Part shown: in pieces, positions 10,318-11,845 of the stretch
Layout of the letters: each line of letters begins with the position of its first letter
Position numbering within the stretch: position 1 is the stretch's first letter
Source of the DNA: an uncultured Candidatus Poseidoniales archaeon
GTDB taxonomy: Archaea; Thermoplasmatota; Poseidoniia; Poseidoniales; Thalassarchaeaceae
Assembly: GCA_964645485.1 (NCBI GenBank)
Contig: CAZXZO010000018.1
Location: 5,778-17,622 of the forward strand
Reading direction: 5' to 3'
DNA: 11,845 nt
Made by a program: the position numbers and the translations under genes
The notes under the pieces: generated by a model
What the model was told of the DNA's origin: nothing
The model's database searches: none
Seen by the model: the letters and a program-made list of their open reading frames with translations, nothing else

Positions 10318-11402
10318 AATGACTTGACTGCTGAAATTACCTGCTCGACTTCAGCATCTGTAAGGTGTGGATGAACTGGAATAGAGACGACACTTTCACA
10401 AATTGCTTCGGTAGTTGGTAATGCTCCTTGCTGGTGTTGGGTGTGCCCCTCATACAAGGGTTGGAGATGACACGGTATTGGGTAGTGAATGCCCGTGGAA
10501 ACGCCCTGCTCATCCATGTGTGTCTGGAAATCATCTCGTCTATCAACTCGTAAAACATACTGGTGCCAAGCATGTAACGCACCTTCACGAATTGCTGGGG
10601 GGTTAGTCCAATCAAGGGAAGAAAATGCCTCATTATATCGGGCCGCGATTTCGTTACGTCTTGCTACCCAGTCATCCAAGTGTTTGAGTTGGACTCTACC
10701 TACTGCACATTGCATTTCTGAAAGACGGAAATTAGAGCCGAGGAAATCGTGGCGATATTTGTCTAAGCGGCCATGGTCGATCGCCATTCCTATTTTATCT
10801 GCTAAATCTTCACGGTTTGCTAAAATTGAGCCACCGTCTCCACCTACAGCCATGTTTTTACTTGGGAAAAAGGAAAATGTTGCTAAATCTCCTATGCTTC
10901 CAATTCTCTGACCGTTCAATTCCGCACCATGTGCTTGGGCCGAATCTTCAATCAAGGGAATGTTGTGGTTCTTGGCAATTTCGAAAACTTTTGGTGAAAT
11001 TGGTTGACCATACAAGTGGACTGCGATGATGGCTTTTGTTGAACCTGTTATCGCCGCTTCTACAGCATCAGGACAAAGGGTGTGATATTCTTCTTCAACA
11101 TCTACGAAAACAGGAGTTGCGCCAACTTGGTCAATACAAGTAGCACTAGCAATGAATGTGTGTGATGGGACGATTACTTCATCTCCATGACCTACATCAA
11201 GTAGCCGAAGGGCGGCGATTAATGCTGTTGAGCCGTTTGAGCAAGGGGTTCCTGCAAGTGCGCCACAGTAAGCCGCCCATTCTGCTCCAAATGCTTTAGA
11301 ATGTGGGCCTTTAATCCATCTACCTGAATCAAGAACCTCGCTTACGACCTCTCTCATTTCATCATCGATGAACATTCGACCAAGTGGAATATTGTCTCCC
11401 AA
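10308..11402 (-). CDS. DegT/DnrJ/EryC1/StrS family PLP-dependent sugar aminotransferase (WbpE-like candidate)
   Basis: SNGSTAL, AVHLYGQP, IEDSAQAHG, FSFFPSKNMAVGGDGG (PLP lysine), GSNFRLSE, GIHYPIP; TTG start with AGGTGAGG SD. Confidence 0.95.
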   Translation of the reverse strand: MGDNIPLGRMFIDDEMREVVSEVLDSGRWIKGPHSKAFGAEWAAYCGALAGTPCSNGSTALIAALRLLDVGHGDEVIVPSHTFIASATCIDQVGATPVFVDVEEEYHTLCPDAVEAAITGSTKAIIAVHLYGQPISPKVFEIAKNHNIPLIEDSAQAHGAELNGQRIGSIGDLATFSFFPSKNMAVGGDGGSILANREDLADKIGMAIDHGRLDKYRHDFLGSNFRLSEMQCAVGRVQLKHLDDWVARRNEIAARYNEAFSSLDWTNPPAIREGALHAWHQYVLRVDRRDDFQTHMDEQGVSTGIHYPIPCHLQPLYEGHTQHQQGALPTTEAICESVVSIPVHPHLTDAEVEQVISAVKSFQP

Positions 11403-11404
11403 TG

Positions 11405-11412
11405 CCTCACCT
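11405..11412 (-). promoter_or_regulatory. Putative Shine-Dalgarno AGGTGAGG of the DegT gene
   Basis: CCTCACCT on + strand just upstream of the TTG start; complementary to the archaeal 16S 3' end. Confidence 0.55.
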
Positions 11413-11489
11413 TCTGAGATGCGCGGGTGGGTATTTCATACTTGAGTGAGGCGGATTACAGACTCTAGCACGCGCTAGAAATATGCATA

Positions 11490-11544
11490 ACTGTTGAATT
11501 GAAATCAAACAGTTACCCCGTTCACCTTACGCAGGGGTTGCCAA
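11490..11544 (+). repeat. 55-bp repeat, copy 1 (diverged)
   Basis: ACTGTTGAATTGAAATCAAACAGTTACCCCGTTCACCTTACGCAGGGGTTGCCAA; 46/55 identical to copies 2 and 3, ungapped. Confidence 0.92.
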
Positions 11545-11686
11545 CGCCCGCCGCGAGCGCAGCGGCGTGCGACATTGCGGCTTCGCCGTGATTATAAGGA
11601 AAAAAAAGATTGAAATGTTTGGGTTTCGATAAACATAGAAATTACTGCAACTCAAATTGTTCTAACCAAAAAAGTCAATCCGCTTT

Positions 11687-11741
11687 ACCGTTGATTTGAA
11701 ATCAAATTGTTACTGCGTTCAACCTAAGCAGGGGTTGCCAA
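11687..11741 (+). repeat. 55-bp repeat, copy 2
   Basis: ACCGTTGATTTGAAATCAAATTGTTACTGCGTTCAACCTAAGCAGGGGTTGCCAA; identical to copy 3. Confidence 0.97.
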
Positions 11742-11790
11742 ATTAGTCTCGGCCAGCAAGCCCTCCGGGCATCCCCAACCAGTTGTTTCA

Positions 11791-11845
11791 ACCGTTGATT
11801 TGAAATCAAATTGTTACTGCGTTCAACCTAAGCAGGGGTTGCCAA
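11791..11845 (+). repeat. 55-bp repeat, copy 3 (ends exactly at the window edge)
   Basis: 55/55 identical to copy 2, with a 49-bp unique spacer between them. Confidence 0.95.

Follow-up and report, generated by a model that had tools for sequence, protein, structure and literature searches.

Three direct repeats of 55 nt, separated by two unrelated spacers, are located at the right end of an 11,845-nt stretch of DNA from an uncultured archaeon of the order Poseidoniales, immediately in front of the gene for tRNA-Leu(GAG). The whole stretch, referred to below as the window, corresponds to C18:5778-17622 in the 1.94-Mb, 55-contig assembly of an 82%-complete bin designated G000. The array probably represents att-type duplications, that is, stacked attL-type sites, left by two site-specific insertions of miniature modules which are devoid of an integrase gene and regenerate the promoter and the 5' end of the tRNA gene. 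It is read in this way because the pattern matches the leftovers of elements targeting tRNA genes (tDNAs) and because integrase elements exist in the genus and the order. An earlier sequence-only reading had offered a cluster of origin iterons, a guide-like RNA array, or an array of recombination or insertion sites. Only the last proposal came close, as judged from native and foreign promoter arms, from empty sites in relatives, and from strains with zero, one or two modules.

All three copies have the same orientation. Copies 2 and 3 are 100% identical, and copy 1 differs from them by nine substitutions and no insertions or deletions, all of them within the first 41 nt, while the final 14 nt are invariant in the three copies. 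These features, as well as the lengths of spacer S1 (142 nt) and spacer S2 (49 nt), had been noted in the sequence-only reading and were reproduced here. The spacers are also unique, as stated there. Blast searches with S1 and S2 against G000 yielded nothing above 15 nt, and no match longer than 14 nt for S2, so the spacers were not templated from elsewhere in the bin. A scan of the 1.94-Mb assembly allowing up to 14 mismatches revealed no further 55-nt unit. The unit is therefore not a dispersed repeat, a possibility which had been raised as an objection to the array, and the three-copy arrangement is far beyond chance. Pairs of inverted repeats were not detected between 10500 and 11845. The features of the array, all on the + strand of the window except for the last entry, which lies beyond it, are as follows.

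11490..11544, + strand: copy 1; apparently the displaced original promoter arm (11490-11530) with orphan tRNA-Leu(GAG) nt 1-14 (11531-11544); attL-like
11499-11504, + strand: TATA-like TTGAAA of copy 1, position -32
11545..11686, + strand: spacer S1, 142 nt; putative body of the older module, with hairpins H1 and H2 followed by an AT-rich stretch
11545-11571, + strand: hairpin H1, GC-rich, 10 bp with a 7-nt loop
about 11578-11588, + strand: hairpin H2, 4 bp with a 3-nt loop
11687..11741, + strand: copy 2; putative module-borne promoter arm with tRNA nt 1-14; TTGAAA at 11696-11701, position -32
11742..11790, + strand: spacer S2, 49 nt of unique sequence; putative body of the younger, tRNA-proximal module
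11791..11845, + strand: copy 3; predicted live promoter with tRNA-Leu(GAG) nt 1-14; TTGAAA at 11800-11805
C18:17778-17847: rest of tRNA-Leu(GAG), beyond the window and past a spurious 100-N gap with a 55-nt overlap

Past this gap, the 55-mer runs uninterrupted into an 84-nt tRNA-Leu(GAG) gene, which was predicted by ARAGORN and matches the Rfam family RF00005 (tRNA) with 43.9 bits. The invariant 14 nt are positions 1-14 of this tRNA, and copy 3 constitutes the 5' end of the live gene itself. The partner gene that had been supposed to lie to the right is thus neither a recombinase gene nor cas or cdc6, but tRNA-Leu(GAG). Likewise, the description of the array as non-coding needs correction for the last 14 nt of each copy, which in copy 3 belong to the live gene; for the remainder it stands. 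Each unit appears to be composed of a 41-nt predicted promoter arm, which includes the transcription-start region, and of tRNA nt 1-14. Upstream of 32 tRNA genes of G000, the TATA-like motif T[TGC]NAA[AGT] was found with 15 matches in the 5-nt bin from -35 to -31 versus about two in other bins, and in both arm types of the repeat TTGAAA starts at -32. As far as can be judged from sequence, all three promoters would be able to fire. The promoter consensus of the clade, deduced from the same 32 genes, comprises a CCGTT/CGGTT-like word, then TTGAAA, TTCAAA or TTAAAT at about -32, and a GC-rich region from -20 to -6. The word GTTGAATTGAAAT is also present about 35 nt ahead of the GTG start of the S-adenosylmethionine decarboxylase (AdoMetDC) gene, which suggests a leaderless or short-leader mRNA.

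The promoter assignment bears directly on the proposed origin of replication (oriC). A 15-bp dyad (TTGATTT-G-AAATCAA) occurs in each unit together with a G-string, and S1 includes AT-rich DNA. By repeating a short dyad and a G-rich element in an intergenic region, the array is similar to the origin recognition boxes (ORBs) of archaeal origins. Such origins are characterized, however, by an adjacent orc1/cdc6 gene and by inverted ORBs flanking an AT-rich unwinding element. In G000, both Cdc6/Orc1 genes, detected by Cdc6_C matches, are found on other contigs, C3 and C34, all copies are direct rather than inverted around an unwinding element, and congeners have a single copy. Moreover, the native arm has only an imperfect version of the dyad, which coincides with the box present in the promoters of other tRNA genes and of AdoMetDC, and the G-string is the acceptor stem. 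The origin-like elements would therefore be a promoter box and the tRNA acceptor stem, and iterons of an origin are extremely unlikely.

The right edge of the window is a scaffold gap of 100 N (C18:17623-17722), after which the identical 55-mer resumes. Identical 55 nt on both sides were detected at 22 of the 44 gaps of 100 N in the G000 assembly, including the two that bound the window (C18:5678-5777 and C18:17623-17722). Exact duplications of this kind are the signature of k=55 contig overlaps joined by the scaffolder. For an independent check, Logan k=31 contigs of the public runs X1, X2 and X3, which may be source samples of the metagenome-assembled genome (MAG), were inspected at the level of contigs, not reads. 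The 55-mer unitig had about twice the depth of its flanks, not three times (499.6 versus 274-278 in X1, 348 versus 176-179 in X2), and a 109-nt unitig consisting of 30 nt of repeat, S2, and another 30 nt of repeat was present at single depth in X1-X3. One k=31 contig stops 30 nt into the repeat, and another begins 30 nt before the tRNA body. The single k=31 path from S1 through repeat, S2 and repeat to the tRNA implies that there are three copies and that the array ends at copy 3. Copy 3 and the 55-mer past the gap are one and the same piece of DNA, so that there is no fourth copy. A full element hidden by the N gap was considered and rejected on the basis of this contig path and of the 55-nt gap overlaps.

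The array had been described as running off the window edge, an impression created by the gap overlap; in fact, it is closed at copy 3. The accompanying suspicion of a k=55 artefact was justified for the copy beyond the gap, but not for the copies in the window, which are supported at k=31. That the repeat length of 55 nt is real and no k-mer artefact follows from its reproduction at k=31 and from the same boundaries seen in copy 1 and in the copies of the congener G011. Hence, although the repeat length equals the apparent k of the assembler and the copy past the gap is an overlap artefact, it is highly improbable that the array as a whole is a product of assembly, such as a de Bruijn loop. 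The depths of the 55-nt and S2-bridging unitigs in three runs speak against it, copy 1 is diverged and syntenic with relatives, and both G011 and a strain in a further run, X4, independently carry S1 and the block. Half of the scaffold gaps of G000 carry spurious 55-nt duplications able to mimic repeats at an edge, and any repeat or duplication at a window edge in this assembly should be checked against this artefact. In the present case a false lead was removed, since what had looked like an array continuing past the contig is complete with three copies and sits at a tRNA gene.

In six congeners (G014, G017, G013, G016, G005, and G004), the locus consists of the gene for the DegT aminotransferase, about 88 nt, one block with tRNA-Leu(GAG), about 75 nt, and the AdoMetDC gene; spacers are absent. 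This single-block layout represents the empty site. The copy-1 arm (41 nt) is only 1-4 nt away from the single copies of G017, G013, G016, and G014, which abut the intact tRNA, and the native arms of these four species are 1-3 nt apart among themselves. The arm of copies 2 and 3, on the other hand, is the outlier, with 6-8 nt to the native arms, 9 nt to copy 1, and 5 nt to the G011 arms, which are the closest. From these distances it follows that the outermost copy is the original chromosomal promoter and 5' end, now orphaned, and that the gene is served by a foreign arm. Relatives thus show an empty attB, and in G000 attL has the native arm and attR the foreign one. The extra DNA of G000, which amounts to 301 bp (S1 + block + S2 + block, 197 + 104), lies exactly between tRNA nt 14 and 15. 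G011 carries one homologous unit, with two copies 198 nt apart; the spacer between them is 75% identical to S1 over 197 nt, and three mutations are present in the orphan tRNA fragment. The tRNA bodies of G000, G011, G014, and G017 are identical. Over an 11.4-kb part of the window, G000 shows 86-93% identity to G014 and G017, which are empty, and 84-88% to G011, which is filled. As G000 is closer to the two species with empty sites, relatedness at this locus does not predict presence of the module. Upstream, in the intergenic sequence, G000 is like G014 and G011 like G017, and the comparison of the whole window supports the same ordering.

A comparable arrangement was detected at the tRNA-Leu(CAA) gene on contig C2 of G000. 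There, native upstream sequence with nt 1-13/14 of the tRNA is followed by a GC-rich double hairpin, about 100 nt, a new promoter with cognate nt 1-14, and the intact tRNA. The promoter of this module differs from the Leu-GAG arm and has TTTGAAGG at the same distance. In the orphan fragment of G000, G1 is mutated, and in the orthologous arrangement of G011 the fragment is largely decayed and the hairpins are intact. The site is empty in four congeners, G014, G017, G013, and G016. Insertion is after nt 14 at both tRNA-Leu(GAG) and tRNA-Leu(CAA), though nt 9-14 differ between them, and each module carries the cognate version.

The double hairpin H1/H2, with which S1 starts, has four instances, one at each of the two loci in G000 and in G011. 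In H1, three of ten pairs keep pairing with both sides changed, and H2 is invariant in the four instances. A covariance model of H1/H2 retrieved only these four among 21 genomes of the genus. Folding of single units was no better than that of shuffled sequences (z 0.05 to -0.41). In region 11300-11845, only chance matches to Rfam 15 were obtained at permissive thresholds (E >=2.6), and three paralogous loci yielded only tRNAs and matches at chance level. The conserved double hairpin would be the cis-acting end of the module or an insulator.

Direct repeats, unique spacers, a terminal repeat that has diverged, and polarised addition beside a fixed end give the array some likeness to clustered regularly interspaced short palindromic repeats (CRISPR). 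CRISPR arrays are defined by many near-identical repeats of 23-50 nt, spacers of uniform length, and cas genes or at least Cas1 in the genome. Here, only three copies and irregular spacers of 142 and 49 nt are present, the repeat is a promoter with a tRNA 5' end, and no cas genes were found, Cas1 being absent from the 82%-complete G000. Nor is S1 an acquired spacer, given its conservation in a second species and at a second locus. A CRISPR-like repeat-spacer array can be dismissed with near certainty, and the same findings (no Cas1, three copies, and the nature of the repeat) speak against the guide-like candidate of the sequence-only reading.

A more serious competitor is a local origin without any mobile unit. 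The block would have been duplicated in place by slippage, template switching, or break repair in the D-arm with filler DNA, and would then have been lost precisely and repeatedly. Copies 2 and 3 are completely identical although S2 resembles S1 at neither end, as would be expected if copy 2 had been copied in situ. Deletion is favoured by 55-nt direct repeats, zero-unit and one-unit strains exist, and neither a recombinase nor a free form was found. However, the arm of copies 2 and 3 is too distant from the native arms (6-8 nt versus 1-3 nt among themselves) for a recent copy of copy 1. The same nt 14|15 junction and homologous hairpins recur at a second tRNA-Leu gene, whose promoter arm is a different one, both loci are empty in all of the more distant congeners, and presence does not follow relatedness at this locus. 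We therefore regard local duplication as rather unlikely, though by no means negligible.

Variation among strains was evident in run X4, an independent marine metagenome from 2025. One related contig, at a depth of about 36, joins copy 1 directly to the tRNA body and thus represents an empty site. In a second contig, S1 and one block are joined to the tRNA, and the S2 unit is missing. In this one-module strain (contig covering L003:862-1296, window 11307-11741), window positions 11462-11540 are replaced by GCC, by which 28 nt of upstream sequence and the first 51 nt of copy 1 are removed and S1 is kept. From this replacement the displaced native promoter is judged to be dispensable, and displaced copies in general, being mutated or deleted, appear to be so. 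Strains with zero, one, and two modules coexist in nature. The S2 module looks like the youngest, because its flanking blocks are identical and because S2 is absent from the one-module strain of X4 and from G011. The diverged copy had been taken as the outermost member of a polarised growing array. Its outermost position was confirmed, but it is the displaced original, and the newest module is the one nearest to the tRNA.

Could the array instead be functional in its own right, as tandem promoters or as a small-RNA locus? It would then give rise to an S1 RNA with H1 and H2, an S2 RNA, and pre-tRNAs with long leaders, acting as a small-RNA or guide-like locus or as a device for tRNA-Leu dosage. 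A TATA-like box at the canonical distance in every copy and the compensatory changes in H1/H2 are in favour of this explanation. In contrast, the hairpins are retained where displaced copies degenerate or disappear, as seen in the G011 orphan with its three mutations, in the fragments at tRNA-Leu(CAA), and in copy 1 of the X4 strain. In addition, folding is not better than that of shuffled sequences, no Rfam family is matched, and most congeners are without the array. A functional array of this type is improbable.

According to the interpretation as stacked insertions, two successive events would have taken place between nt 14 and nt 15, in the D-arm of tRNA-Leu(GAG). Each gene-free module would carry its own 55-bp identity block at the tRNA-proximal end, so that insertion would rebuild an intact tRNA gene equipped with a promoter and push the former promoter and 5' fragment upstream as an orphan. 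The logic would be that of attL and attR of integrative elements targeting tRNA genes, in the rarer 5'-fragment configuration. Module 1, made up of S1 and a block (197 bp), would be the older one and begins with the conserved double hairpin; module 2, made up of S2 and a block (104 bp), would be recent. Copy 2 would be the 5' end regenerated by the first insertion and later displaced by the second. In the absence of a recombinase of their own, the modules would either be non-autonomous and depend on mobilisation in trans, or be what deletions left of larger elements, the latter being less likely because modules are conserved at two loci. A site-specific recombinase would have made the insertions.

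A number of observations are difficult to reconcile with such insertions. No recombinase gene was found between the copies or in the 82%-complete bin except for one XerA-like gene on contig C2, the sole PF00589 match in G000. With 197 and 104 bp, the units are far below any described integrative element, and a 104-bp circle is an implausible recombination substrate. Neither a free or attP form nor a larger element with block, S1, S2, or hairpins was detected in IMG/VR, JGI metagenome contigs, or GTDB species genomes. The identity block ends at nt 14, in the D-arm, at both loci, while known crossovers in tDNAs are situated in the anticodon loop or at the T-loop/acceptor junction (PMC4383910). 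S2 starts and ends unlike S1 despite the identical block, and local duplication with filler DNA could explain the second unit. The displaced copy of G011 has a module-type arm and a mutated fragment, and an extra step, for example gene conversion, is needed to account for it. Finally, independent gain was first deduced from the similarity of the upstream intergenic sequences; recurrent loss may fit as well, the insertion then being ancestral and having been removed precisely wherever the repeats recombined.

Individual components were searched for more widely. The block, exact or degenerate, is absent from viral contigs and JGI metagenome contigs, and among GTDB species genomes it was found only in G011. 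The H1/H2 signature is likewise absent from viral and metagenome contigs. S2 had no match in about 400 genomes of the order or, searched as a whole and as halves, in IMG/VR. S1 and S2 have only the block in common and are unrelated at both ends; the S2 unit may have been left by another element that used the same att block, or may have arisen by duplication on the spot with filler DNA. A circular junction was not seen in contigs. Searches for attP-like junctions (AAG, tRNA nt 1-14, and a residue other than G) produced eight viral matches, all by chance and without similarity to the arm. The detached 14-mer was found eight times outside G000 in 400 genomes of the order, in every case within coding sequence and with no tRNA nearby, and four times with the reversed pattern as a control, so that its frequency is in line with background. 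A casposon, expected to produce a target duplication of 14-15 bp and terminal inverted repeats, and an element of the IS200/IS605 type were dropped, as inverted repeats are missing and a long cognate identity block is present. A miniature inverted-repeat transposable element was rejected as well: terminal inverted repeats were not found, and the duplicated block is 55 bp long and includes a promoter.

Among known systems, the closest are tyrosine-integrase islands and proviruses in tRNA genes (Reiter 1989; Williams 2002; Islander, PMC4383910; archaeal examples, PMC9897764). In these, too, an intact tRNA gene is accompanied by co-oriented cognate fragments, the 5' one upstream; the regenerating part is supplied by the insert, relatives have empty sites, and tandem stacking occurs. 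The island-borne tDNA fragment restores the gene and displaces the original, and 5' fragments were described in 159 of 3,919 islands (PMC4383910). The sharp-edged block of 55 bp is comparable to the 44-bp repeats of PYG1. Measured against the definition used by Islander, displaced cognate fragments are present, as copies 1 and 2 lie upstream of tRNA-Leu(GAG) in the same orientation. Islander also expects a tyrosine integrase gene between fragment and tDNA, a length of 2-200 kb, and a crossover at the anticodon loop or the T-loop/acceptor junction. The array, in contrast, has intervals of 142 and 49 nt, units of 197 and 104 bp, and a block ending at nt 14. A further difference from tDNA islands is that the block must include the whole promoter.

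Cis-mobilizable elements (CIMEs) and their tandem accretion (PMC5704250), as well as the tandem ssrA islands of Dehalococcoides (PMC3146451), share with the array the gene-poor, att-bounded, recombinase-less organisation and the stacking at one attB. CIME-like units could be gained and lost by recombination between att copies, with a recombinase provided in trans. Described CIMEs are bacterial, kilobase-sized, and derived from integrative and conjugative or integrative and mobilizable elements, whereas the units here are archaeal and 0.1-0.2 kb in size, with no helper element identified. The tRNA-linked repeats (TLRs) of E. coli (Egan and Landy 1978; PMC8144298) are also short, gene-free units with an exact copy of a tRNA end, sometimes in tandem; they reside within tRNA operons and are mostly of unknown function (PMC8144298). 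TLRs repeat the 3' terminal 18-19 nt downstream of the gene, whereas the array repeats a promoter and the 5' 14 nt upstream, and there is no sequence relationship. Taken as a whole, we lean towards a miniature, integrase-less, promoter-replacing variant of the att duplications at tRNA genes, which as such are already known. A bolder proposal is put forward only tentatively and seems less likely to be correct than not to be: that the modules constitute an undescribed miniature, gene-free mobile element of Marine Group II archaea, one that would always enter tRNA-Leu genes at nt 14|15 of the D-arm, bring along its own promoter and the cognate first 14 nt, and be recognised by its hairpin. In this proposal, the double hairpin is perhaps recognised as folded DNA by a recombinase of the host or a helper, such as XerA.

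Modules were also observed on the other side of tRNA genes. Gene-free modules of 140-200 nt are located directly 3' of Leu-GAG, Leu-CAA, Leu-TAA (two in tandem), and Pro-TGG in G000. Similar ones are present in G011, G004, and G006 and are absent from the congeners with empty sites. The positions are as follows.

L003:1626-1782 (C18:17848-18004): 3' module at Leu-GAG, just beyond the window
L058:733-886, L059:178-463, L060:264-467, L055:906-1043, L008:2020-2176: other 3' modules

Each of these modules starts with an inverted copy of the cognate T-stem/T-loop, contains a long hairpin, variable in sequence, as well as a conserved GGACTGAcCAAaGgGAAGGAAG box, and is terminated by a direct repeat of the cognate 3' end that begins at the T-loop. 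This layout closely matches the TLRs of E. coli (PMC8144298). RNAalifold predicted 34 pairs, ten of them with compensatory changes; a match in Rfam was not obtained, and the motif had no match in IMG/VR. At tRNA-Leu(CAA) of G000 (C2:57900-58650; L058:300-1050), the 5' hairpin module is accompanied by four copies of the tRNA 3' end, which separate a series of short modules, X - Y - X, with the X unit of about 165 nt occurring twice. The whole of this arrangement is absent in G014, G017, G013, and G016. A second 3'-end copy about 180-200 nt downstream was found at both tRNA-Pro(GGG) (C16:8900-9700, L061) and tRNA-Pro(TGG) (C4:64100-64900, L060). The insert at Pro-GGG does not obviously belong to the Y family, but has the word CCTTCGCAT..TCAACCT in common with the X unit of Leu-CAA.

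Fragments on both sides of a working gene could also result from a nested replacement cassette, introduced by homing or break repair. A complete tRNA-Leu gene with its promoter would have invaded the old gene, leaving nt 1-14 upstream and the part from the T-loop to the end downstream. A 5' fragment upstream and a 3' fragment downstream of the working tRNA are indeed present at both Leu-GAG and Leu-CAA in G000 and G011, and congeners are without both. No nuclease gene is present, however, the two stacked 5' units are left unexplained, and 3' modules without a 5' fragment at tRNA-Leu(TAA) and tRNA-Pro(TGG) indicate that the two sides can be independent. A replacement of this kind is therefore improbable, and equally so is its corollary that the 5' array and the 3' module are the two ends of one event.

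Returning to site-specific insertion, integrase-mediated targeting of tRNA genes exists in the genus and in the order, as documented by an element on contig C35 of G011 and by the integrase-bearing Charybdis elements, which were reported to integrate next to tRNAs in Poseidoniales (10.1101/2025.08.03.668216). The G011 element (G011:C35, L094, 2732-14291) represents a classical case of integration, with about 10.3 kb inserted at tRNA-Ala(TGC) and a gene for a 295-aa tyrosine integrase directly after the tRNA gene. The 16-nt 3' end of the tRNA (ATCCCCCAACGTCCAC) recurs 10,263 nt downstream, within another open reading frame, which is recombinase-like and encodes 417 aa. This arrangement recalls integrases with an att site inside their own gene.

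The genes of the window encode PurH, a thermosome subunit, a T2SSE-like ATPase, a Gfo/Idh/MocA oxidoreductase, a glycosyltransferase, an APH-type kinase, a hexapeptide acetyltransferase, and DegT. Their functions are in housekeeping and sugar modification, and this gene content confirmed the statement that cas, cdc6, integrase, and transposase genes are missing from the window. On the right-hand side, tRNA-Leu(GAG) is followed by AdoMet decarboxylase-like and deoxyhypusine synthase-like genes. In C18:18095-19300, an AdoMet decarboxylase-like gene (PF02675) precedes a putative deoxyhypusine synthase gene, the latter as judged from its sequence.

The structure is unusual in its tiny size, the lack of an integrase, the rare 5'-fragment configuration, the D-arm coordinate, and the replacement of a tRNA promoter. 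If the modules are merely scars, they would still serve as strain markers and call for caution in the automated prediction of tRNAs, CRISPR arrays, and origins in MAGs. If they belong to a miniature mobile element, they and the 3' modules of these genes would suggest that structured "tRNA-end parasites" form a broader class. Modules that are truly mobile would widen the repertoire of elements targeting tRNA genes and would provide an example of natural promoter replacement at an essential gene. At the level of strains, which carry zero, one, or two modules, the tRNA genes of uncultured Poseidoniales are landing pads in active use.

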